Virus record (IMG/VR): IMGVR_UViG_2630968558_000009
DNA: 10,820 bases
Strand: one strand, 5' to 3'
From: a virus
Taxonomy: Duplodnaviria; Heunggongvirae; Uroviricota; Caudoviricetes
Shown here: positions 1 through 10,820 of the stretch, in pieces
Layout: every line of letters begins with the position of its first letter
How positions within the stretch are numbered: position 1 is the first letter of the stretch
Made by a program: the position numbers and the translations under genes
Notes under the pieces: generated by a model
What the model was told of the DNA's origin: nothing
Databases searched by the model: none
Seen by the model: only the letters and a program-made list of their open reading frames with translations

Positions 1-19
1 CACAGGAGTCAAAATTGCC
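1..19. repeat. Partial direct repeat of the tRNA-Sec 3' portion; candidate distal attachment-site (att) repeat marking the left island boundary
   Basis: Positions 1-10 (cacaggagtc) are identical to 10397-10406 inside the tRNA-Sec gene; over 1-19 the match to 10397-10415 is 16/19. The window starts inside the repeat, so it may extend further left. Confidence 0.45.
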
Positions 20-67
20 ATATAACTATTTGATTCAAATCGTTTATATTTTTCTATTCTAATTCAT

Positions 68-90
68 TTATACACATCCTTATACATATA
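68..90. repeat. TATACACAT-N2-TATACATAT motif near the left end; a similar copy lies at 10254-10277 near int; candidate integrase arm-type binding site
   Basis: Left copy ttatacacatccttatacatata (68-90); right copy ctatacacattactatacatattt (10254-10277), same orientation, each within about 100-150 bp of an element end. Confidence 0.35.
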
Positions 91-135
91 ATATCTATCG
101 ATTAATTGTTACACGTATCTTCACGCACGTTAACT

Positions 136-436
136 CAGGAAAAAAATTTTTTTTCGAAAGAACTGTTCACACTGTTCACCTTTCTTTTTTCTCCTTTTAT
201 TTCAGTATGATAGGTGGTGAATAATGGGTGAAGGGTGAACATTCGATTCTTCACCTCCGGCATTCTGCCGGTGTGACTCATACCGGTGATTAATCCCCCG
301 TACTGAAATCACACAGGGAGAAAAAAAGTTTTTTTTGATTTGATTGTTCACACTGTTCACCTTTCGTTTTTCTCTTTTAATTTCAGTGTGATAACGGGTG
401 AATATACGGTGAAGGGTGAACAGTGGATTGTTCACC
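136..436. repeat. crr-like cis replication region: two direct repeats of about 105 bp carrying TGTTCACC/GGTGAACA iterons
   Basis: Near-identical units at about 136-241 and 316-422, period about 180 bp. Iterons at 164-171, 173-180, 234-241, 345-352, 354-361, 415-422 and 429-436. P4 crr is recalled as two ~120-bp direct repeats with type I octamers bound by alpha. Confidence 0.7.
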
Positions 437-454
437 TTCGGGGAGTTCAGGGAT

Positions 455-480
455 AAAAAAAGACCGGCAGATGCCGGTCA
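455..480 (-). terminator. Rho-independent terminator of the leftward operon, just past the alpha stop
   Basis: Plus strand aaaaaaa-gaccggc-agat-gccggtc; on the minus strand this is a 7-bp GC-rich stem with a 4-nt loop followed by a run of 7 U, directly after the alpha stop codon at 487-489. Confidence 0.55.
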
Positions 481-486
481 GGTGGG

Positions 487-2820
487 TCAGGTTGTTGCAG
501 GGTCGTCACATTTTGGCAGCCAGTCGCCGTAGCTTTCCTCTTTCAGCGTCAGGTTGGTCTGTATCCCCTGTTTGGTATGGCGCTTCTCGTAATTCAGTCC
601 GTATTCCTTCAGCATCACCGGCAGCCCCAGCCCGAACATTTTCAGACTGAGTACATTCCGGTAGCCGTTTGCCTCCATGTAGGCCAGATAGGCGTGATAG
701 AGGTATTTACGGTAATTGCGCGGGATGATACTGGCGTTCCCCATATACATGCCGCTGGTCTGCGGCAGGGTTTCCAGATAGCCGATAAAATCAAACGTCG
801 GGTCGGCATCCCGTTTGATGTTCAGCGCCTCGTCTGAGTTTTGCTGGGACTGAAGCAGTGACCGGGCGAGCATCGGGTCGCTGAACTTCTGCATCAGGTG
901 ACGCACGATGACCGCCAGCTCGCGGGTGATTTTGTCCTTAAGCTGCGGGTCGCGCTCCTGCGGGGCTATCTGTTCCGGGAAGTGAATAATCACCCGCCGG
1001 CGTGACACGCCGCCGCTGCGGTCGGTGAAGCGCATCGGGTTATTGTTCACGGCCAGAATCACCGCCGGGATATGCGTGGAGTATGCATCCCGGTATTTCG
1101 GGTCAACGGACACCGCATCGCCGCCGGTGATGGCCTTGAGTCCGGCACCGTCGCCGCTCCATTTTTCCTGGTCCGGCAGGCGTATCAGTGAGAAGCCAGT
1201 TAACGCGGCACGTTCACGCGGGGATTCCAGCGTCTCAATGGTGGCCGATGTGGCGTTATCCTCCCCGGCCAGCAGGGTGGCGATTTCGGCCATGATACTT
1301 TTGCCGCTGCCGCCGGGACCGGTCACCTCCAGAAAGAGCTGCCAGTCGTAGCGGTTTGCCAGCACCATAAACAGTGCGGCCAGAATCACGTCGCGTTTTT
1401 CCGCACGGCCACCGGCGGCACGGTCAAGCCAGCGCCAGAACGCGGGGGCGTGGGTTTCCAGCGTTTCCCCTTCCACCGGCGGGGTGAAATCCACATCACA
1501 CAGGGTGCGCATCCAGTGTGACGGACTGTGCGGGTGGAACGTGCCGTTCTGCGTGTCGAGCACGCCGTTACGAAAGCCAATCAGGCGGCGGGAGGGGGCT
1601 TCCTGCTGCGGAATAATCAGCTTCAGGGTGTCCACCACGGAGGCCACTTTCCCGGAGGAGAACGGCGCGCGCAGACGCTGAAACAGCCCGGCCACATCCC
1701 GGGCAAAGTCCTGTGGTGGCAGCACCTTCCAGACACCATTTTCATAGCGGGACAGAAGCTGGCCGTTGGCATCGACCGCGAGCGCCTCGCCGTAATGCTC
1801 ATAGATACGCATGGCCTTTTCGCTGGTACTCATGGCGGAAAACTCCGCTTCGCTCATGGTGTCGAACGGGCTTTCAGCCGGTGGCCGGATGGCATCATAA
1901 ATGGCCTTACGGGTGGCTTCCCCGCCGTACTGCGTGAAGGCATCATTCCAGTCACCGAAGACCGGCGGCAGGGCAACAACACCTTCACACGCATCTGCGG
2001 CTGCGGCGGCTTTTTTCTGGCCGTCACCGCTGAGGTCACGGTCAGCGGCAAGGACAATCTGACAGGCGGGATGCTTCTGCCGGGCAAGGCTGGCCAGAGA
2101 AAGGAGGTTCACGGAAGAAAGCGCCACCATCACCGTTTCACCGGTCAGGTGATGCACGGTTAGTGCGGTCGCGTATCCCTCCGCTATCCACAGACGTTTT
2201 CCGGCCTGATTCTGTCCTTCAAGGGTGTGACAGGTGCCCCTGACCTGTCCGCCTTTCAGGGTGCGCTTACGGCCGTCAGCGCTGATTAACTGAAGGTTAA
2301 CCAGTTCGCCGCTGTCGTCATACAGTGGCACCACAAGGTCACCGGCGCGCCAGCTCACGCCACCGGCTCTGTGTGTGCCGGTCAGCATCCGGCATTCCCG
2401 GCCGGGAAAGCCCTTGCGGGTCAGGTAGGCGTTACCGGTTCCGGGACGGGTTTTCGCCATCAGGGTTTGTGCCAGTGCGGCGGCGTTCTTCCGGGCAGCG
2501 TCTGTTTCAGCACCGGCGGCGGTCGTCACTGCCGGGTCAGCCGGGGGCAGGCTGCCGGTCACGGCAGCCACCTTTGTGGCCGCGTCGGACGGGGAAACAC
2601 CAAACACCTTTTCAACCAGTTTCAGGCCGTCACCGGCACCACACTGATTGCAGTACCAGGTGCCGCGCCCCTCCCTGTCATCAAAACGGAAGCGGTCACT
2701 CCCGCCACAGACCGGACAGGGCTGATGATGGTTCTTCAGCACCTGAATCCCCAGCGCCGGGAGAATACGCGGCCAGTGACCGAGCGCATGGCTGACGGTG
2801 GCGGTTACGTTCATTTTCAT
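487..2820 (-). CDS. alpha: P4 alpha-type primase-helicase (replication protein)
   Basis: 777-aa ORF, the length I recall for P4 alpha. N-terminal zinc-binding CPVCGGSD...YCNQCG, primase-type acidic motifs (EGYATA, LAADRDLSGDG), Walker A GPGGSGKS. AAGGAG Shine-Dalgarno 7 nt upstream of the ATG at 2820. Flanked by crr as in P4. Confidence 0.93.
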   Translation of the reverse strand: MKMNVTATVSHALGHWPRILPALGIQVLKNHHQPCPVCGGSDRFRFDDREGRGTWYCNQCGAGDGLKLVEKVFGVSPSDAATKVAAVTGSLPPADPAVTTAAGAETDAARKNAAALAQTLMAKTRPGTGNAYLTRKGFPGRECRMLTGTHRAGGVSWRAGDLVVPLYDDSGELVNLQLISADGRKRTLKGGQVRGTCHTLEGQNQAGKRLWIAEGYATALTVHHLTGETVMVALSSVNLLSLASLARQKHPACQIVLAADRDLSGDGQKKAAAAADACEGVVALPPVFGDWNDAFTQYGGEATRKAIYDAIRPPAESPFDTMSEAEFSAMSTSEKAMRIYEHYGEALAVDANGQLLSRYENGVWKVLPPQDFARDVAGLFQRLRAPFSSGKVASVVDTLKLIIPQQEAPSRRLIGFRNGVLDTQNGTFHPHSPSHWMRTLCDVDFTPPVEGETLETHAPAFWRWLDRAAGGRAEKRDVILAALFMVLANRYDWQLFLEVTGPGGSGKSIMAEIATLLAGEDNATSATIETLESPRERAALTGFSLIRLPDQEKWSGDGAGLKAITGGDAVSVDPKYRDAYSTHIPAVILAVNNNPMRFTDRSGGVSRRRVIIHFPEQIAPQERDPQLKDKITRELAVIVRHLMQKFSDPMLARSLLQSQQNSDEALNIKRDADPTFDFIGYLETLPQTSGMYMGNASIIPRNYRKYLYHAYLAYMEANGYRNVLSLKMFGLGLPVMLKEYGLNYEKRHTKQGIQTNLTLKEESYGDWLPKCDDPATT

Positions 2821-2834
2821 GGTGTTGTTCTCCT

Positions 2835-3155
2835 TCAGTGCAGTACCGGCGCTTTTATGTGACGGGCACAGAGTTCATCCATCACAACCAGCCCGAGAAA
2901 GGACAGCGACGGCGCGGCCTTCAGGGGGCCGGATTCCATTAAATCTTCCAGCAGGGCACAGGCTATCTGACGCCCTTTTTCCTCACCGTGCTGGCGCAGA
3001 TAAAAGCCTTCCAGCTCAGCGGCGATGGCCGCCTCCAGTGACTCAAGGGTGAGATGCGGGTAGCGGTGCTGACGTTCGCACACGGTCAGCCAGGCACAGG
3101 CGACAGCACGACGGTAAAGGGCTGCGCGTAAGACGGGCGGTAAGGGTGTTTTCAT
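2835..3155 (-). CDS. P4 orf106-like hypothetical protein
   Basis: 106-aa ORF immediately upstream of alpha (14-bp gap), preceded by GGGAGG Shine-Dalgarno. Size and position match the orf106 of P4 as I recall it. Confidence 0.7.
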
Positions 3156-3290
3156 TTGTTTTCCTCCCTGTGACAGATGACTGCATTCCGTGCCGGTTGC
3201 ATTAACTGATAAGGCATATCTGCGTCTCCTGAAGACGTGCGTATCCCTGCGCGAATACGCACATTTAATTTTTCGGGTGTCGTTTTTTAA

Positions 3291-3746
3291 TTACAGATAA
3301 TTGCGGTAACTGTTATCCGGGGTGATTTCCGGGTCAGGCTCCGTGCAGGGAATTTCCCGCCATTCCCGCGCCACCGGTGCCGCCCGGCTGGCCGGAACAG
3401 TGTCCTGCGGGTAAATATCCAGATATTTCTCCCGCCATTTCTGTAATTCCGGGTCTCCGGCCATTTCTTTCAGTACCGCATGCCGGTTTACGGGGCTGCG
3501 TTTAAACAGGTCAGGACGGTCACAGGTAAATTCCCGCAGAAAACGCCCCAGCGGGATGTCTGTGGTGCGCCCGTCGGCGAGGATACGCACAAGGATACTG
3601 AATTTACGGCGGTACGGGTTCCAGACAATGTCCGGGCAGCGGTACGGCATTTCCCACGGAATACCGTCTTCCAGAATGCCGACCACGGTCACATCGGGAA
3701 AACCGGCAGAACGGTAAATCTCACCGGGCTGGGGAAAATCAAACAT
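3291..3746 (-). CDS. P4 orf151-like hypothetical protein
   Basis: 151-aa ORF in the P4 left-operon position between the epsilon-like gene and orf106; its start overlaps the end of the upstream ORF by 8 nt (3739-3746). Confidence 0.7.
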   Translation of the reverse strand: MFDFPQPGEIYRSAGFPDVTVVGILEDGIPWEMPYRCPDIVWNPYRRKFSILVRILADGRTTDIPLGRFLREFTCDRPDLFKRSPVNRHAVLKEMAGDPELQKWREKYLDIYPQDTVPASRAAPVAREWREIPCTEPDPEITPDNSYRNYL

Positions 3747-4026
3747 GCGTCCTGTCTCCCCGGTCTTTCTGCTGGGCGAGAAAATCGCGGCACAGGCCTT
3801 TGGCTTTCAGCTCATTCAGCACAAAATCAATATCCTCATTCAGGTAGCTGAAAATATGCGGAATGTAGAGCTGATGCAGGCCGGAGAGTTCACGGTGAAT
3901 CAAATCACCCCCAACAAACTGGGATACGGCGCTGGCGCGGTTGAGCTTATGGTAAGCCTCAATGCTGAGGTGTTCACGGGCGTCATGACGCGCTGAGACG
4001 GTCTGAGGGGCTTTTTTATTACGCAC
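3739..4026 (-). CDS. eps: Epsilon-like protein (in P4, the anti-repressor that derepresses the P2 helper prophage)
   Basis: 95-aa ORF directly upstream of and overlapping orf151. Assigned from size and synteny with the P4 left operon; I did not recognise the sequence itself. Confidence 0.55.
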
Positions 4027-4423
4027 GGGACACCTCCATCACCGGCAGACGGGCCGCAAGGGAGAGCACATAGTCACGGACAAGGGAACGGCGGGCACTG
4101 CGTTCATCACCGGCGACGGTGCGAAGCATGCAGATACGGGGATGACGGTCTGCGCGACGGACAGCCGCAAACACAAAGACAAATTCAGGGTGTGAAGGGG
4201 TAAGGGTCGTAGCCATAAGGCAACCTCCGATAACAGCGTAAATGACGCTATCGCCGGAGTTCTCACGCTCGATGGCGATAGCCCAGACGGGGGTGAGAAT
4301 ACCGGCGTTATCGGAAACCGGCCAGCCCGGAGGCTGCCCCGCCTGAGCTACCATTGACTCAGAGGCATAACATGCGATTGCGAACAGGATCATACCTGCA
4401 CGGCAAACCACACGCCACACCAT
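4019..4423 (-). CDS. Candidate kil/eta-position protein; start codon uncertain
   Basis: The 211-aa track ORF (4019-4654) overlaps vis in its 5' part, so only the 3' portion can be real. In-frame ATGs at 4423 (MVWRVV...) and 4393 (MILFAIACY...) sit downstream of the leader terminator. The stop at 4019-4021 overlaps the epsilon start (4026), suggesting translational coupling. Confidence 0.3.
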
Positions 4424-4455
4424 AATTTGGTGCTCTGTGGCGTTGATTGCGACAC

Positions 4456-4477
4456 AAAAAAAGACGCATGGCGCGTC
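4456..4477 (-). terminator. Candidate intrinsic terminator in the leader between the putative early promoter and the first ORF
   Basis: Minus strand reads gacgc-gccat-gcgtc followed by 7 U (plus-strand A-run 4456-4462, stem 4463-4477). The stem is only 5 bp, so this is tentative. Confidence 0.35.
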
Positions 4478-4540
4478 ATATGTCGCCGATAACATACTCG
4501 GGTTCTCACGCCCGGCTGCCGATTTTGCGACAGCGGAAAA

Positions 4541-4570
4541 ACTATATCCGCAAATGCCGGAAAAAGGCAA
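4541..4570 (-). promoter_or_regulatory. Candidate PLE-like early promoter of the leftward operon
   Basis: On the minus strand, TTGCCT (plus 4565-4570) then an 18-nt spacer then TATAGT (plus 4541-4546), downstream of the vis stop and about 110 nt upstream of the first ORF start. Sequence match only. Confidence 0.3.
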
Positions 4571-4605
4571 GCCAGAAAAAGGGAGTTTTTGCAGAACAGG
4601 CATCA

Positions 4606-4872
4606 TCATGCGTCGTACCCCCGTTTGCGTCCGGCAATGCGCCCGGCCATCCATGCGGTGACTTCAGAGTGCAGCCAGGCCACATTTTTACCGCCAAGAC
4701 TCACCTGCGGCGGAAATTCCCCCTTACGGATGAGTTCATAGATGGTCGAGCGTGACAGGCCGCACAGGTGCATCACTTCCGGCAGACGTAAAAAACGCTC
4801 CTGCGTGATGTCCGGCAGCGGCATCAGTGGCGTCACAGGGGAGGGAGACGGGGAAGAAAAAACAGCTTGCAT
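4606..4872 (-). CDS. vis: Vis-like AlpA-family helix-turn-helix regulator/excisionase
   Basis: 88-aa ORF with an AlpA-type HTH ([16 protein letters not shown]), GAGGT Shine-Dalgarno upstream of the ATG at 4872. It lies between the ori/late-promoter region and the early promoter, as P4 vis (orf88) does. Confidence 0.75.
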
Positions 4873-5122
4873 CGGGCTACCTCGTTAATGTCCATACAGC
4901 ACCGGATAAGTCCGTCCGGCTTCGGGTAGCGCTTTATTTTGTGAATATTTTCAGCAGACGCAACAGGGGGGATTTGTTCCGGCAGCCTTACGATGGCTGT
5001 ATGTTTTTTATCCATCCGGACTGGAAGGGTCTCAAAGGGTTCTGAAGGACCTGGAATTTTTTATAGTGAAATACAAATTGTTTTTTCTTATTTATTTCAG
5101 TGAATTAATAAAAATAAAAAGT

Positions 5123-5254
5123 AATGAACAGCACAAAAAGCCCATCAACGGGTGAACAGTGGTGAACAGACGGTGAACAGTCATTACTGCGATTGTTCAC
5201 CCTTTAACTTACTGTATTACCTATCTTTTTTCTTATGGTGAACAGAGGTGAACA
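5123..5254. repeat. ori-like iteron cluster (replication origin)
   Basis: Six TGTTCACC/GGTGAACA octamers at 5151-5158, 5161-5168, 5172-5179, 5194-5201 (opposite orientation), 5237-5244 and 5247-5254, in AT-rich surroundings between vis and sid. The same octamer as in crr, about 4.7 kb away, matching the P4 ori-crr arrangement. Confidence 0.7.
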
Positions 5255-5333
5255 GTAAAATATAAAAAAATAAACAGTAAGCCGGTTTTTCCAGCGACCT
5301 TTTCCTGGCTTGCCGGTCTGAGGATGAGTCTCC

Positions 5334-5400
5334 TGTGTCAGGGCTGGCACATCTGCAATGCGTCGTGTTGTTGTCCGGTGTACGTCACAATTTTCTCAAC
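5334..5400 (+). promoter_or_regulatory. Psid-like late promoter with two TGT-N12-ACA dyads (candidate Delta/Ogr binding sites)
   Basis: TGT-N12-ACA at 5334-5351 and 5372-5389, centres 38 bp apart, upstream of the sid ATG at 5424. The TGT-N12-ACA dyad is the known activator site of P2/P4 late promoters. Confidence 0.55.
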
Positions 5401-5423
5401 CTGAAGTGACGAGGAGCCGGAAA

Positions 5424-6158
5424 ATGTCTGACAACACCATCCCTGAATATCTGCAACCCGCACTGGCACAACTGGAAAAGGCCAGAGCCGCCCACCTTGA
5501 GAACGCCCGACTGATGGATGAGACCGTCACGGCCATTGAACGGGCAGAGCAGGAAAAAAATGCGCTGGCGCAGGCCGACGGAAACGACGCTGAAGACTGG
5601 CGCACGGCCTTTCGTGCAGCCGGTGGTGTCCTGAGCGACGAGCTGAAACAGCGCCACATTGAGCGCGTGGCACGCCGGGAGCTGGTACAGGAATATGACA
5701 ATCTGGCCGTGGTGCTGAATTTTGAACGTGAACGCCTGAAAGGGGCGTGTGACAGCACGGCCACCGCCTACCGGAAGGCACATCATCACCTTCTGAGTCT
5801 GTATGCAGAGCATGAGCTGGAACACGCCCTGAATGAAACCTGTGAGGCGCTTGTCCGGGCAATGCATCTGAGTATCCTGGTACAGGAAAATCCGCTCGCC
5901 AACACCACCGGCCATCAGGGCTACGTCGCACCCGATAAAGCTGTCATGCAGCAGGTGAAATCATCGCTGGAACAGAAAATTAAACAGATGCAAATCAGCC
6001 TCACCGGCGAGCCGGTTCTCCGGCTGACCGGACTGTCAGCGGCAACACTCCCGCACATGGATTATGAGGTGGCAGGCACACCGGCACAGCGCAAGGTGTG
6101 GCAGGACAAAATAGACCAGCAGGGAGCAGAGCTTAAGGCCAGAGGACTGCTGTCATGA
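5424..6158 (+). CDS. sid: Sid-like capsid size-determination (external scaffold) protein
   Basis: The track ORF starts at 5358, but that ATG lies inside the promoter dyads. The ATG at 5424 has a GAGGAG Shine-Dalgarno 8 nt upstream and gives 244 aa, the size I recall for P4 Sid. First gene of the sid-delta-psu order. Confidence 0.8.
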   Translation: MSDNTIPEYLQPALAQLEKARAAHLENARLMDETVTAIERAEQEKNALAQADGNDAEDWRTAFRAAGGVLSDELKQRHIERVARRELVQEYDNLAVVLNFERERLKGACDSTATAYRKAHHHLLSLYAEHELEHALNETCEALVRAMHLSILVQENPLANTTGHQGYVAPDKAVMQQVKSSLEQKIKQMQISLTGEPVLRLTGLSAATLPHMDYEVAGTPAQRKVWQDKIDQQGAELKARGLLS

Positions 6159-6400
6159 TGCGCTGCCCTTTCTGTCGTCATTCAGCGCATACCCGCACCA
6201 GCCGGTATGTGAGTGACAATGTCAAAGAAAGTTATCTGCAGTGCCAGAATATTTACTGTTCGGCGACATTTAAAACGCATGAGTCAATTTGTGCCGTGAT
6301 TCGTTCTCCGGTCACGGAGGAAAAACCAGCACCGGCAAGCACAGCACCGGCTGTTGTCCGAAAAGTTAAAGGCTGTTACAGCTCACCATTCAACCATTAA
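6155..6400 (+). CDS. delta: Delta/Ogr-family zinc-finger late transcription activator (single-domain form)
   Basis: 81-aa ORF with an Ogr-like Cys4 arrangement (CPFC ... CQNIYC). Its ATG overlaps the sid stop (ATGA at 6155-6158). Confidence 0.8.
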   Translation: MMRCPFCRHSAHTRTSRYVSDNVKESYLQCQNIYCSATFKTHESICAVIRSPVTEEKPAPASTAPAVVRKVKGCYSSPFNH

Positions 6401-6414
6401 TCAGGAGACGGGGT

Positions 6415-6987
6415 GTGACCACAATGTCATTACAGCAGGCTTTTGAGGTCTGCCAGAATAACAAAGCAGCATGGCTGCAACGCAAAAATGAGCTGGCTGC
6501 GGCCGAACAGGAATATCTGCGGCTTCTGTCAGGAGAAGGCAGAAACGTCAGCCGCCTGGACGAATTACGCAATATTATCGAAGTCAGAAAATGGCAGGTG
6601 AATCAGGCCGCCGGTCGTTATATTCGTTCGCATGAAGCCGTTCAGCACATCAGCATCCGCGAGCGGCTGAATGATTTTATGCAGCAGCACGGCACAGCAC
6701 TGGCGGCCGCACTGGCACCGGAGCTGATGGGCTACAGTGAGCTGACGGCCATTGCCCGAAACTGTGCCATACAGCGTGCCACAGATGCCCTGCGTGAAGC
6801 CCTTCTGTCCTGGCTTGCGAAGGGGGAAAAAATTAATTATTCCGCACAGGATAGCGACATTTTAACGACCATCGGATTCAGGCCTGACGCGGCTTCGGTG
6901 GATGACAGCCGTGAAAAATTCACCCCTGCGCAGAACATGATTTTTTCGCGTAAAAGTGCAGAACTGGCATCACGTCAGTCTGTGTAA
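6415..6987 (+). CDS. psu: Psu-like polarity suppression protein (in P4, capsid decoration and Rho antagonist)
   Basis: 190-aa ORF, the size I recall for P4 Psu. GTG start at 6415 with AGGAG Shine-Dalgarno at 6403-6407; the first ATG is at 6424. Third gene of the late operon, followed by a hairpin and cos. Confidence 0.8.
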   Translation: MTTMSLQQAFEVCQNNKAAWLQRKNELAAAEQEYLRLLSGEGRNVSRLDELRNIIEVRKWQVNQAAGRYIRSHEAVQHISIRERLNDFMQQHGTALAAALAPELMGYSELTAIARNCAIQRATDALREALLSWLAKGEKINYSAQDSDILTTIGFRPDAASVDDSREKFTPAQNMIFSRKSAELASRQSV

Positions 6988-7022
6988 AACTCCCCGAAAA
7001 TCCGCCTGTTTTTACTGAAAAA

Positions 7023-7065
7023 AGCCATGCATCGATAAGGTGCATGGCTTTGCATGCGTTTTCCT
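7023..7065 (+). terminator. Candidate terminator downstream of psu
   Basis: Inverted repeat agccatgca (7023-7031), 9-nt loop, tgcatggct (7041-7049), followed by tt and then gcgtttt. The T-tract is interrupted, so confidence is moderate. Confidence 0.4.
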
Positions 7066-7151
7066 GCCTCATTTCCTGCAGATCACGCCGCGCCCGACGC
7101 GGCGTGAGCGTGTCAGTGCAACTGCATTAAAACCGCCCCGCAAAGCGGGCG

Positions 7152-7170
7152 GGCGAGGCGGGGAAAGCAC
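7152..7170. other. P2/P4-type cos site (19-nt cohesive-end sequence)
   Basis: Exact match to the recalled P2/P4 cohesive-end sequence GGCGAGGCGGGGAAAGCAC. A perfect 10-bp-stem hairpin lies just upstream (tcacgccgcg-cccga-cgcggcgtga, 7083-7107). Position between psu and the int-proximal cargo matches P4. Confidence 0.8.
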
Positions 7171-7259
7171 CGCGCGCATGTATGCAGGAAATAACTTGGT
7201 TCTCCAGCCAGAGAAAGAAACTTAACTGGAGAGTTTTGTGTTTTGTTACATGGATGTGT

Positions 7260-9020
7260 TCAGGTTTTATTTATTAATGAAATACTTTTCTCTAGTGACT
7301 CCTTAACTTTTTTTACGCTATTTTTTAATTCAATAATGGCTCCACGACGAAAAGAAATTTTAATTTCATCCAGGTATGAATTTAAAAACTCATCTAGTTT
7401 TTTTAGATGAGGTAGCTCGTTGGATAGAAAGTCACAAAGATTTGAGAAGTTATATACAGACAATAGATGGTTTGAAAATAATTGAATATCATAAATGGAC
7501 CAGCTATTTTGTATGGCATTTATGATTAAATCTACATCTAAGGTTTCCAGGGCTTTATACTTGAAATCTGAATGGTATATATCCATGTCGATAGCGGTCC
7601 AACCATCGTTAACCATCTTGTTTCTTAATTCTTGTATTTTTTCTTTTTCCGTTATTTCAATATATTTTTCAACGAAAAAATTATAAAGGTCGTCCCCATC
7701 ATGTTTTAGAATGTGGAGTGGTATGCTATTAATATTTGGAACAGTTTCATGAAAATATGATTTTATTTCATGGTCACTAAAGCTAAACATATTTTGTTTG
7801 ATGGTGTTTTCATCCAAGGCATCTACACGTGGTATATATTCAGATTCTGAGAGTCTAATATAGTTATTCGTGGCAGTTAGCCATGTGGATAGATTTGGAG
7901 AATTTGATTTTAAGATTGTTTTTGTTATTTCTTCCTGATAGTCATCTTCAGATATGCTATATAGTTCGGGCCTTGCTAATCCAGCATAATCATCTTTCTT
8001 GGGAGGAGTGTTGTAAGTAAAAACATATGGAAGAATATCTTTATGCGAAATTTCATTAAAACAATATGGAGCCATTTTATTATTGTAGTTTTTATATGCA
8101 ATAATGCTTAATAAATTGTTTTCCTCTTCACTTATTTTATTTTGTTCACTTTCTGGAGTGGTTGAAATTGTTCTATATGATGATGAAACAATATTTTCAT
8201 GGAATTCATTTTCCTTATAGTTGAATTTTTCCTTAAGTATTATATGTGCACACAATGAGCTTACTAAATTTTTAATATCTATATCAGAGATATCTCTGTC
8301 TTGAGTTGTTTGTTCAAAAAATGGTAGGAGTTTTACAATGACTCTATTAATAATCCGGATATTGGTTTCTTCGAAACCTATAATTACTTGCTTAATGATG
8401 TCTCTATAATTTCCTTGTGTCTTCTCAAGCTTTTTGTCTAAAATCTCAGAAAGATTGTTTATAGAAAAATATATCTCATCGCTAATAACCTTTTCTTTAT
8501 GATTCAATGCATTATTGCTTTGCTTTGAAAAGTTACCCACTAAAATATAATCTAGCATCTTGTTATTTTGATAATTTTGTAAGCAAAAGGTTGCTATTTC
8601 ATCTCGTAAAGTTTGAGGTATACGTTCTAGATCATCAATGATAAAAACTCCGGAAAGATCTTTTAATACATAATGTTGCATTGCTCCAGCAAATGTTGAG
8701 ATTATTTTTCCAGCCAACCTCCCAGTGTTTTCTTCTTTAGTAATAGCTGTGGTTACATTTGATGCTAACTCTGTAATTATTTCGATATCAGGTGGATTTT
8801 CTAAATAAGTTACACTCAACATCTTGTCTTTAAAATCTTGTAAACTGTTTAATCCAAGCACAGATATATAAAATTGGTTCTTGTGAGAATAATATTTTTT
8901 AAATTCATGTTGAAGGAAGAATGTTTTACCAACTCCCCACTCACCATTTAACAAAATTAGACCTTCACGTTTTTCACTTAGTAATCTAATTAAAACAGAT
9001 ATTATTGCGCTTTTATCCAC
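7260..9020 (-). CDS. KAP-like P-loop NTPase with an uncharacterised C-terminal region of about 400 aa; cargo gene of the cos-int hotspot; candidate anti-phage defence protein
   Basis: 586-aa uninterrupted ORF. GTG start at 9020 with AAGGAG Shine-Dalgarno 6 nt upstream. Walker A GEWGVGKT (residues 26-33, nt 8922-8945) and Walker B-like VFIIDDLER (residues 125-133), resembling the KAP-family GxWGxGKS/T and hhhhDDLDR signatures. No hydrophobic stretch of transmembrane length and no nuclease/PLD/HEPN motif that I can identify by eye. Strongly AT-rich relative to the P4 core. Confidence 0.85.
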   Translation of the reverse strand: MDKSAIISVLIRLLSEKREGLILLNGEWGVGKTFFLQHEFKKYYSHKNQFYISVLGLNSLQDFKDKMLSVTYLENPPDIEIITELASNVTTAITKEENTGRLAGKIISTFAGAMQHYVLKDLSGVFIIDDLERIPQTLRDEIATFCLQNYQNNKMLDYILVGNFSKQSNNALNHKEKVISDEIYFSINNLSEILDKKLEKTQGNYRDIIKQVIIGFEETNIRIINRVIVKLLPFFEQTTQDRDISDIDIKNLVSSLCAHIILKEKFNYKENEFHENIVSSSYRTISTTPESEQNKISEEENNLLSIIAYKNYNNKMAPYCFNEISHKDILPYVFTYNTPPKKDDYAGLARPELYSISEDDYQEEITKTILKSNSPNLSTWLTATNNYIRLSESEYIPRVDALDENTIKQNMFSFSDHEIKSYFHETVPNINSIPLHILKHDGDDLYNFFVEKYIEITEKEKIQELRNKMVNDGWTAIDMDIYHSDFKYKALETLDVDLIINAIQNSWSIYDIQLFSNHLLSVYNFSNLCDFLSNELPHLKKLDEFLNSYLDEIKISFRRGAIIELKNSVKKVKESLEKSISLINKT

Positions 9021-9032
9021 AAAATACTCCTT

Positions 9033-10223
9033 TTAGTAATCATAATTAACGCAACCGGCTGGATAAATAAAATCGCTATACCATTGTAACATTTTTAATC
9101 TTTTCTCTAAGTATTGAGCATGATTATATGTTCCCCTAATGCTATTTTTATCAACATGAGCTAGTTGCATTTCAATCCATTTACTATCAAAACCTTGTTC
9201 ATGTAGTATTGTCGACATTGTATGTCTAAATCCGTGGCCTGTTGCACGTCCCTTATAACCAAGTAATTCGATCACTTGTGATATACTTTCTTTAGAAATT
9301 GGTTTAGTACGATTGTTACGTCCAATAAATATATAAGGATAATGGCTAGAGAGCGGTTTTAATTGATTAAAGAGGGTAATAACTTGAGATGATAAAGGTA
9401 CAAGGTGAGGACGACGCATTTTCATGCGTTCTGCTGGTATTTCCCATATTCCTTTTTCTAAATTGACTTCTTCCCATGTGGCAAAACGCAGTTCTTGTGT
9501 TCTTACCCCGGTAAGCATCACAATCTTGGTTGCATTTTTAGTGATTATGCTGCCAGTATAAGCCTCAAGATCTTTGACAAAATGAGGGAGTTCTTCTGCT
9601 GATAGAAAAGGATGATGTTTTTGCTTCGGTACAGCTAATGCGATAGCTAAATCAGGTGCTGGATTGTATTCAGCGCGGCCAGTGATGATCGCGTAGCGAA
9701 ACACCTCTCCGCATCGTTGACGTACTTTTCTGGTTTTCTCCAACGCTCCACGTTTTTCTATGCGTTTAAGTACTTCAAGCAGTTCTAGGGGTTTTATTTC
9801 AGCTATTGGCCGTTTACCAATGAAAGGAAAAACATCCTGTTCAAATGTTTTAATAATTTCTTCGCGATAAGCTAAAGTCCAGCGATCTGCTTTTGCTGCA
9901 TGCCATTCTCTGCTAACGGCCTCAAAAGAGTTTTCAGATGATAATTTCTGAGCAATTTTCTGAGCCTTACGTTCTTCTACTGGATCAATGCCATTTGCAA
10001 CCTGTTTACGTGCCGTATCGCGTTTCTCACGTGCTTCCGCGAGGCTTACAAGGTCGTAACTACCAAATGACATTAACCGCGCTTTCCCTGCAAACCGGAA
10101 ACGGAAACGCCAGCCTTTCGAGCCATCGGGATTGATAAGCAATGACAGACCTTGTCCATCGTTCAATGTGTATGGTTTGTCTTGTGGTTTTGCACGTTTG
10201 ATCTGTATATCGGTTAGGGCCAT
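9033..10223 (-). CDS. int: P4-family tyrosine recombinase (integrase)
   Basis: 396-aa ORF starting MALTD..., as P4-type integrases do, with a C-terminal catalytic region containing HGFRHT and RGTYNHAQY (catalytic Tyr). Adjacent to the 3' end of the tRNA-Sec gene. Confidence 0.92.
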   Translation of the reverse strand: MALTDIQIKRAKPQDKPYTLNDGQGLSLLINPDGSKGWRFRFRFAGKARLMSFGSYDLVSLAEAREKRDTARKQVANGIDPVEERKAQKIAQKLSSENSFEAVSREWHAAKADRWTLAYREEIIKTFEQDVFPFIGKRPIAEIKPLELLEVLKRIEKRGALEKTRKVRQRCGEVFRYAIITGRAEYNPAPDLAIALAVPKQKHHPFLSAEELPHFVKDLEAYTGSIITKNATKIVMLTGVRTQELRFATWEEVNLEKGIWEIPAERMKMRRPHLVPLSSQVITLFNQLKPLSSHYPYIFIGRNNRTKPISKESISQVIELLGYKGRATGHGFRHTMSTILHEQGFDSKWIEMQLAHVDKNSIRGTYNHAQYLEKRLKMLQWYSDFIYPAGCVNYDY

Positions 10224-10385
10224 GTGTATAACTGAAAACTACGTATAAAAAATCTATACACATTACTATACATATTTTTCGCGGATTCAGGGAGATGATC
10301 TCGGACTATTACGGACAAGCTGATTATTCATCGCATTGAATATAAATGATTTTATGGAGTGTCTCGGAACTGGCTGGATGAGGTT

Positions 10386-10480
10386 TGGCGGAAGATCACA
10401 GGAGTCGAACCTGCCCGGGACCGCTGGCGGCCCCAACTGGATTTGAAGTCCAGCCGCCTCACCGGAGACGACGATCTTCC
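10386..10480 (-). tRNA. selC: tRNA-Sec (selenocysteine tRNA, anticodon UCA)
   Basis: Reverse complement of 10386-10480 reads GGAAGATCGTCGTCTCCGGTGAGGCGGCTGGACTTCAAATCCAGTTGGGGCCGCCAGCGGTCCCGGGCAGGTTCGACTCCTGTGATCTTCCGCCA: 95 nt, long variable arm, TCA anticodon, CCA end. It matches the E. coli selC sequence as I remember it. Confidence 0.9.
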
Positions 10481-10820
10481 GCGCCTCGATTGCTACATGG
10501 AGGCGGGGCGCATTATAGCTACTTCCTTGAGTTTCTACATCCCCTGGTTCATTTTTTTCCGGGCAATATGCGCAAAGCTTTATCACTAACCCATTATAAT
10601 TAACATAAATATCATATATTCCAATGATATATGGGTAGGTTTATCGCTACCACGATCACATAAAACAAGAATCATAAATTAATAACCAGATATCGGAATA
10701 TTCACTCTGGCAGGGATGGTTTACAAAACTCTTTATCGGTCTCAGCACCCCCATAGCAGTAAGCGGCTCGTCAGAACCGTATTGATATTTACTGAGAGCT
10801 CAGATCAACTTTCCAGGGCA

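Follow-up and report, generated by a model that had tools for sequence, protein, structure and literature searches.

The YTATACAYAT boxes near both ends of the window (the whole 10,820-nucleotide stretch of DNA analysed here) are very probably arm-type sites for the N-terminal domain, residues about 3–88, of the heterobivalent integrase encoded by the element itself, a P4-like satellite prophage. The original prediction had proposed that they are integrase arm sites, and this reading is supported by the presence of an arm-binding domain in Int, by the P4-like layout of the att region, by the conservation of the boxes among relatives and by their co-variation with the Int N-domain. As far as the searchable literature shows, the arm recognition sequence of this integrase had not been mapped previously.

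Both att arms of the window carry copies of one motif

Two strings in the same orientation, ttatacacatccttatacatata at positions 68–90 and ctatacacattactatacatattt at positions 10254–10277, had originally been singled out as matching, with a spacer of 2–3 nt in each. Both strings are found at these positions and share their orientation, and 3-nt spacers can be read in both pairs, giving a period of 12 bp. The composite TATACACAT-N3-TATACATAT is present at 69–89 and at 10255–10275. The window contains five exact matches to TATACAYAT, every one of which lies inside the two att arms. Four of them are on the plus strand (69–77, 81–89, 10255–10263 and 10267–10275), and the fifth is on the minus strand (10222–10230).

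The int-distal arm contains site 1 (TTATACACAT, 68–77, plus strand), an exact match that starts 58 bp after CACAGGAGT, and site 2 (TTATACATAT, 80–89, plus strand), which is positioned 12 bp from site 1. The int-proximal arm contains a tandem pair, CTATACACAT (10254–10263, plus strand) and, 12 bp from it, CTATACATAT (10266–10275, plus strand), both of which are exact and conserved. Two further copies in the int-proximal arm were overlooked by the original prediction. One is an inverted site (TTATACACAT, 10222–10231, minus strand), the last three bases of which are the int ATG and which is a candidate operator. The other, a fourth int-proximal site, is degenerate (TTATACGTA, 10240–10248, minus strand), and a perfect copy exists at the same position in relatives. 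The box motif is unrelated to the core sequence CACAGGAGTC, and the core is flanked on either side by sites less than about 200 bp away, the 68–89 pair at a distance of 58 bp and the 10222–10275 sites at distances of 110–165 bp. Outside the boxes, a by-eye check found no likeness of the two ends that could be attributed to duplication or recombination scars.

The int gene itself contains two copies with one mismatch, TATACAGAT at 10201–10209 and CATACACAT at 10166–10174, which resemble an in-gene repeat annotated in P4. In 30 relatives they show free variation at synonymous positions, and they were rejected as sites.

The original prediction had also raised the worry that the boxes reflect a chance resemblance in AT-rich DNA. 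The arms have a GC content of only 30%, and the shorter YTATACA core alone is not significant in this window (five copies, against an expectation of 1.8, and five or more in 13 of 200 shuffles). For TATACAYAT, however, five copies are observed against 0.11 expected and none of 200 whole-window shuffles reaches five, while the composite 21-mer has two matches in the window against 0.01 expected. Dinucleotide shuffles restricted to the two arms (272 bp, 30% GC) give a mean of 0.064 copies and a maximum of two, with 0 of 5000 reaching five, and an AT-rich control from the cargo region (7201–9300, 2.1 kb, 30% GC) contains no TATACAYAT at all. The arm-only shuffles and the empty control rule out the worry as it was raised. 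Furthermore, the position, orientation and spacing of the boxes are conserved across genera, in loci that are not recent copies of one sequence (Int identity 58 to 98%, flanks unrelated), and the probability left to chance is virtually nil.

The element encodes an integrase with an arm-binding domain

The int gene (9033–10223, minus strand) encodes a tyrosine integrase of 396 aa with the Pfam domains Arm-DNA-bind_3, Phage_int_M and Phage_integrase. The arm-binding domain (PF13356, E = 1.3e-27) comprises residues 3–88 (nt 9960–10217), and the protein further carries PF22022 and PF00589, the core-binding and catalytic domains. The N-terminus of Int matches the solved arm-binding domains of PDB entries 3JU0 (E = 2e-24) and 3JTZ (E = 2e-18), which we take to be those of the HPI/HAI7 integrases. 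The N-terminal domains of these proteins are homologous and have the DUF4102/Arm-DNA-bind_3 fold, whereas the islands, the tRNA targets and the arm sequences differ. A domain of this kind is the arm-binding domain of genomic-island integrases (PMC8138268).

The vis gene (4606–4872, minus strand; Pfam Phage_AlpA) encodes an AlpA-family excisionase with 98% identity to P4 ORF88, which is annotated as 'excisionase and transcriptional regulator', and by this homology Vis would be the expected excision partner.

The core region is the 3′ end of tRNA-Sec (TGGCGGAAGATCACAGGAGTC, 10386–10406, minus strand), which is regenerated by the element and repeated at the distal end of relatives. The tRNA-Sec gene (10386–10480, minus strand) and int are on the same strand, 162 bp apart, and int reads away from the tRNA. 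At the other end, the int-distal att junction (CACAGGAGTC, 1–10) comprises the last 10 bp of the duplicated selC 3′ end and is identical to 10397–10406. The window starts within the att repeat, the full form of which, TGGCGG(A)AGATCACAGGAGTC, is located in relatives just left of position 1. Because the selC 3′ end is repeated at positions 1–10 and relatives have the full repeat, we infer that the element spans about 1–10406. The bases past the 10-bp repeat, 11–20 and 10407–10416, match at 6 of 10 positions (aaaattgcca vs gaacctgccc), which may be a vestige of an ancestral attP core that was longer and tRNA-like.

A candidate IHF bending site (TAACTATTTGATT, the reverse complement of WATCAANNNNTTR; 23–35, minus strand) lies between the core and the distal pair. 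It matches the consensus perfectly and is nearly invariant among E. coli relatives, and similar boxes, AATCAATAAATT(G/C), occupy the same place in a tRNA-Thr locus (L159) and in E. coli W. On the proximal side, a consensus scan found no IHF site, the window having TTGAAT where the perfect aligned site of P4 has TTGATT. The DNA between the proximal pair and the core contains GGATTC and CTCGGAC..TACGGAC boxes (10283–10316), which form conserved islands in class A loci, and a conserved TCTCGGA box near the core (10362–10368), which is common to P4. All of these boxes resemble those aligned in P4 (L001) at 3966–4070, despite the different arm motif and core, and they are candidate Vis (RDF) sites.

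Adjacent to int, 12 bp downstream and on the same strand, there is an ORF of 586 aa (7260–9020, minus strand, 30% GC), which may be co-transcribed with int. Its product contains a P-loop (AAA_22/KAP NTPase) and weakly matches the PADLOC candidate defence family PDC-S49 (E = 6.5e-11), and the ORF is probably a cargo gene of the P4 hotspot with an anti-phage function.

Comparison with phage P4

Positions 141–7178 of the window, from crr to cos, are collinear with P4 4291–11624 plus 1–27 at 96% identity. The replaced block comprises 7179–10406 plus 1–140 and contains the AT-rich cargo gene, int, both arms and the core, while the P4 segment that was swapped out is 28–4290 (gop, beta, cII, int, att). 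Both breakpoints are exact, one at cos (window 7178 = P4 27) and one at the crr edge (window 141 = P4 4291). With this block replaced and the rest 96% identical, the alignment indicates that the window is P4 carrying another cargo/int/att module, which targets selC.

Within the collinear part, the window is shorter than P4 by 314 bp between two collinear BLAST blocks. The Delta transactivator of the window (6155–6400, plus strand) has 81 aa and a single Ogr/Delta zinc finger, and that of P4 (10314–10814) has 166 aa. Positions 139–441 contain two direct repeats of 122 nt, 181 bp apart and 83% identical, which carry TGTTCACC/GGTGAACA iterons. These repeats are P4 crr (cis-required replication region) and are collinear with P4 4291–4590.

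The attP of bacteriophage P4 and its arm repeats were reportedly described by Pierson and Kahn in 1987. For comparison, we used the P4 arm repeats of GenBank record NC_001609 (features 'attP arm sequence repeat'). According to the GenBank annotation, one P4 repeat ends on the int start codon (3915–3926), a tandem pair with a 12-bp period follows at 3942–3953 and 3954–3965, the core is at 4078–4097, the distal tandem pair is at 4151–4162 and 4163–4174, and crr begins at 4291. The elements of the window are arranged in the same way, at 10222–10231, 10254–10275, 10386–10406 and 68–89, with crr from 139. In both attP regions, an inverted copy lies on the int ATG and a 12-bp tandem pair lies upstream of int, about 110 bp then lead to the core, and another tandem pair is located 54–58 bp beyond, adjoining crr. 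The two integrases also share their domain architecture, and both elements integrate at a tRNA gene 3′ end, that of leuX in P4 and that of selC in the window.

The arm motifs are different. That of P4 is ATGCCCCC, (A/T)NATGCCCCCAA, whereas that of the window is YTATACAYAT; the P4 arm consensus RTGCCCCC is absent from the whole window, and YTATACA is absent from the whole of P4. P4 also has an extra repeat annotated inside int, whereas the in-gene look-alikes of the window are not conserved. The P4 int gene has two in-frame ATGs (MCPQMKL...), the first of which is within its arm repeat. By this comparison, the att region of the window is a P4-type attP architecture with a different arm specificity. 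Identity to the P4 counterpart is 99% for the alpha primase and 98% for Vis, but only 37% for Int. Because Vis and alpha are nearly unchanged and the two motifs are mutually absent, Int is the P4 DNA-binding protein that changed alongside the motif.

The same comparison bears on whether the boxes bind an accessory protein (the Vis/AlpA excisionase, IHF, Fis or the alpha replication protein) instead of Int. PMC7498355 describes RDF sites as typically being direct repeats with a spacing of about one helical turn, which the 12-bp period of the boxes resembles, and the boxes adjoin crr. However, P4, with almost the same Vis and alpha, has ATGCCCCC and not YTATACA at the equivalent positions. The iterons of alpha are TGTTCACC, the box motif does not fit the IHF consensus, and the motif follows the class of the Int N-domain across about 90 loci. 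Recognition of the boxes by an accessory protein is very unlikely on this evidence, and we favour recognition by Int.

The boxes are conserved in related loci

A motif search in the att regions of related selC P4-like elements, which the original prediction had proposed as a check, shows that the boxes are conserved in 30 class A loci and in E. coli variants. Among 5426 complete E. coli genomes, the int–selC junction is present in 476 and the distal end in 484. Across nine E. coli variants (83–99.7% identity), a single spacer base is all that varies in the proximal tandem pair, and the copy overlapping the ATG differs solely by C to T at the Y position. Likewise, the substitutions within the motifs of seven E. 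coli distal ends are confined to the Y position (C/T).

A scan of one genome per species yielded 80 loci with Int proteins of 58–98% identity. In the 30 unique class A selC loci, which come from many genera, GTATAG of both tandem sites is invariant, as is TATACACAT at −7 relative to the int ATG, whereas the 100-bp spacer towards the core has an average identity of 69%. Furthermore, the distance from CACAGGAGT to the start of the distal pair is exactly 58 bp in the window and in three other loci (L111, L151 and L153), although the intervening DNA is unrelated. Such fixed spacing in unrelated DNA, together with invariant boxes in diverged spacers, argues for selection on the boxes themselves. 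As judged from these alignments, the evolutionarily constrained core is YTATAC(A), or GTATAG on the opposite strand, and the YAT tail is looser in distant relatives.

The degenerate site of the window has better-preserved counterparts. A perfect TTATACACAT occurs at this position, −24, in seven loci (L018, L019 and L021–L025), and two divergent E. coli strains likewise have a perfect copy. In class B loci, the place of the 10240–10248 site is taken by a degenerate P4-type box.

Scanning the viral-contig collection with the 21-mer returned mostly unrelated AT-rich matches (giant-virus repeats), with an Int homologue at only 8 loci. Three genome contigs, L016, L020 and L069, encode the same enterobacterial integrase as the window (88–98% identity) but bear the names of Streptococcus, Clostridiales or Vagococcus MAGs or assemblies; these labels are probably binning or contamination errors.

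The motif follows the N-domain of the integrase

In a comparison of about 90 related loci, the motif tracks the N-terminal arm-binding domain of the integrase and not the tRNA target. At least three YTATAC boxes are found between −100 and +3 in 48 of 50 loci with a YTL.DG.GLSLL-type N-terminus, compared with 0 of 34 others (Fisher test, with loci counted regardless of phylogeny). Window-like N-domains at tRNA-Gly, Thr, Ser or Arg have kept the TATAC boxes. Specifically, L159 (tRNA-Thr) and L174, which has a different core, both contain perfect CTATACACAT-N2-CTATACACAT distal pairs, 59–60 bp from their own cores.

The class B selC integrases are natural chimeras. Their N-terminus, MKLT.RQ..YKLSDGGGLYLEV, is P4-like, and their N-domain is 67–75% identical to that of P4 but 47–53% identical to that of the window, while the rest of the protein is 72–75% identical to the window and about 41% identical to P4. 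The corresponding loci carry two copies of TGGGGGCAT plus ATGCCCCCA abutting the ATG, with the same geometry as the boxes of the window. Two scans of viral contigs found no class B distal arms, and E. coli W was examined instead. In this strain, the distal end of the class B island is 16 kb away from int and contains two copies of GGGGGCAT, at a distance of 59 bp from the selC repeat.

Class D integrases (IntI-like) are about 60% identical to the window in the N-domain and 73–76% identical in the C-terminal part, and their loci contain GGGGTAT/TACCCCC-type boxes and no TATAC. At least three arm 'dialects' are found at selC (TATAC, GGGGGCAT and GGGGTAT-like). One IMG/VR contig, L135, contains a class D int and arm region that end at a selC core (reverse strand, about 1266–1670), and an A-type TATACACAT-N3-TATACATAT pair is located 58 bp past this class D selC core. 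From its sequence, L135 appears to be two selC elements of differing arm specificity arranged in tandem.

The circular form brings the N-domain coding sequence and the two arms to within about 350 bp of one another. Because the N-domain coding sequence is physically linked to the arms, co-inheritance of one block could explain part of the co-variation. It is conceivable, but in our estimate doubtful, that the N-domain and both sets of arm sites are swapped as one cassette between integrases with a common selC core, giving mutually orthogonal selC systems. In a low-confidence single-sequence AlphaFold model of the N-domain (pLDDT 62.8), the class-specific residues T19, S27 and L29/I30 are positioned on the first two beta-strands, which is suggestive only.

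The int-proximal sites and proposed autoregulation of int

The original prediction had placed the right-hand copy upstream of int and suggested that it could mediate autoregulation. The proximal boxes are indeed located at −52 to +2 of int, with one of them on the ATG. A Shine–Dalgarno sequence is not obvious, and these copies might be taken for mere promoter or translation-initiation signals of int, the likeness to the distal pair being incidental. In the prophage, however, int expression cannot depend on the distal pair, which nevertheless keeps its 58-bp distance from the core in unrelated sequence contexts and, in class B islands, switches to GGGGGCAT jointly with the proximal sites. A sigma-70 consensus, moreover, was not found: a scan of 10150–10500 revealed no sigma-70 promoter upstream of int, and manual inspection for −35 and −10 elements was unconvincing. 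We give very little credence to a role as expression signals alone, and regard the proximal boxes as part of the set of Int arm sites.

In class A int genes generally, no Shine–Dalgarno sequence is recognisable and an arm box sits directly before the ATG (window leader 10224–10240). Class D relatives have GGAGG where the class A int leader has the arm box.

Int bound to the int-proximal sites would occupy −52 to +2 and should thereby also act as a repressor of int transcription. An overlap of the proximal sites with the int promoter is an assumption here. The proposed autoregulation fits published data on IntL, with the operator as a candidate only. Specifically, a selC-intL promoter fragment of EDL933 (−273 to +70) shows 4-fold repression by IntL in trans (Panis et al. 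2010, PMC2951348), and this fragment contains all proximal boxes. IntL is the integrase of 933L, the selC-adjacent P4-like prophage of O157:H7 EDL933, and the study left its operator and arm sites unmapped (PMC2951348). The selC-intL pair is classed as STI, with the int promoter inside the att arm (PMC2951348). The likeness to EDL933 IntL was judged from another O157:H7 strain, FRIK2069, whose selC Int is 89% identical to the window Int overall and identical to it at residues 1–69, and whose upstream region is 98% identical to that of the window, with all boxes present.

Related observations exist for other systems. P4 Int and Vis are stated in PMC7286903 to repress Pint, and IntI of PAI I536 represses its own promoter, PintI, which has an IHF site (PMC7286903). 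In PAI I536, the selC island of UPEC 536, primer MC11 includes the tRNA-Sec 3′ end, which fits the selC target, and primer MC124 resembles, but does not exactly match, class D upstream regions. As judged from primer MC124, IntI of PAI I536 apparently falls into another N-domain class, MALTD[IV]KVKTAKPKEKPYKLADG.GMYLLI. In the IntS-TorI system of KplE1/HK620, attL and the int promoter overlap, the promoter is also overlapped by arm-type (P′) sites, and repression is exerted by Int as well as by the RDF. This system differs in the conserved TAAA of the IntS P′ sites, in its argW target and in its RDF, TorI, which is not of the AlpA/Vis type. The Int proteins of HK620 and Sf6 are about 46–47% identical to the window Int.

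Discussion

On our reading of the boxes as Int arm sites, the attP of the excised circle would comprise int, the inverted site on the ATG, the degenerate inverted site and the tandem pair with its 12-bp period, followed by about 110 bp with the candidate Vis boxes, the selC core, the IHF-like site, the second tandem pair and crr. The core-binding and catalytic domains of Int would hold the core, while the N-domains would reach the arm sites across bent DNA. An intasome assembled in this way would carry out integration into selC and, with Vis, excision. The arrangement is analogous to that of lambda Int (P1, P2, P′1–3), a heterobivalent integrase with arm sites on both sides that are distinct from the core and with IHF bends between them (background on the lambda-type arm-site mechanism in PMC2951348). 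Lambda Int differs in that its N-domain belongs to another Pfam family, in the motif and number of its sites, and in that int is not transcribed from within attL.

The boxes are an ordinary feature of a P4/lambda-type attP, and textbook behaviour is confirmed with nothing overturned. What is gained, for a selC integrase that is very common, is its likely recognition sequence (YTATACAYAT, repeating every 12 bp) and a complete map of attP. About 480 of the 5426 complete E. coli genomes encode this integrase, and the element adjoining the LEE island in O157:H7 is among those that carry it. The published but unmapped autorepression of IntL is now directly testable by point mutation, and the boxes are an aid in finding where selC islands and P4-like satellites begin and end in genomes. 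The N-domain swaps that occur naturally, in which the core and the spacing are kept and the arm motif is changed at both ends, provide a comparative dataset for the specificity code of DUF4102 and are useful for designing orthogonal integrases. If cassette exchange were true, elements that compete for one tRNA site would be mutually orthogonal in intasome assembly, and tandem selC islands (cf. L135) could excise independently, without cross-mobilisation.
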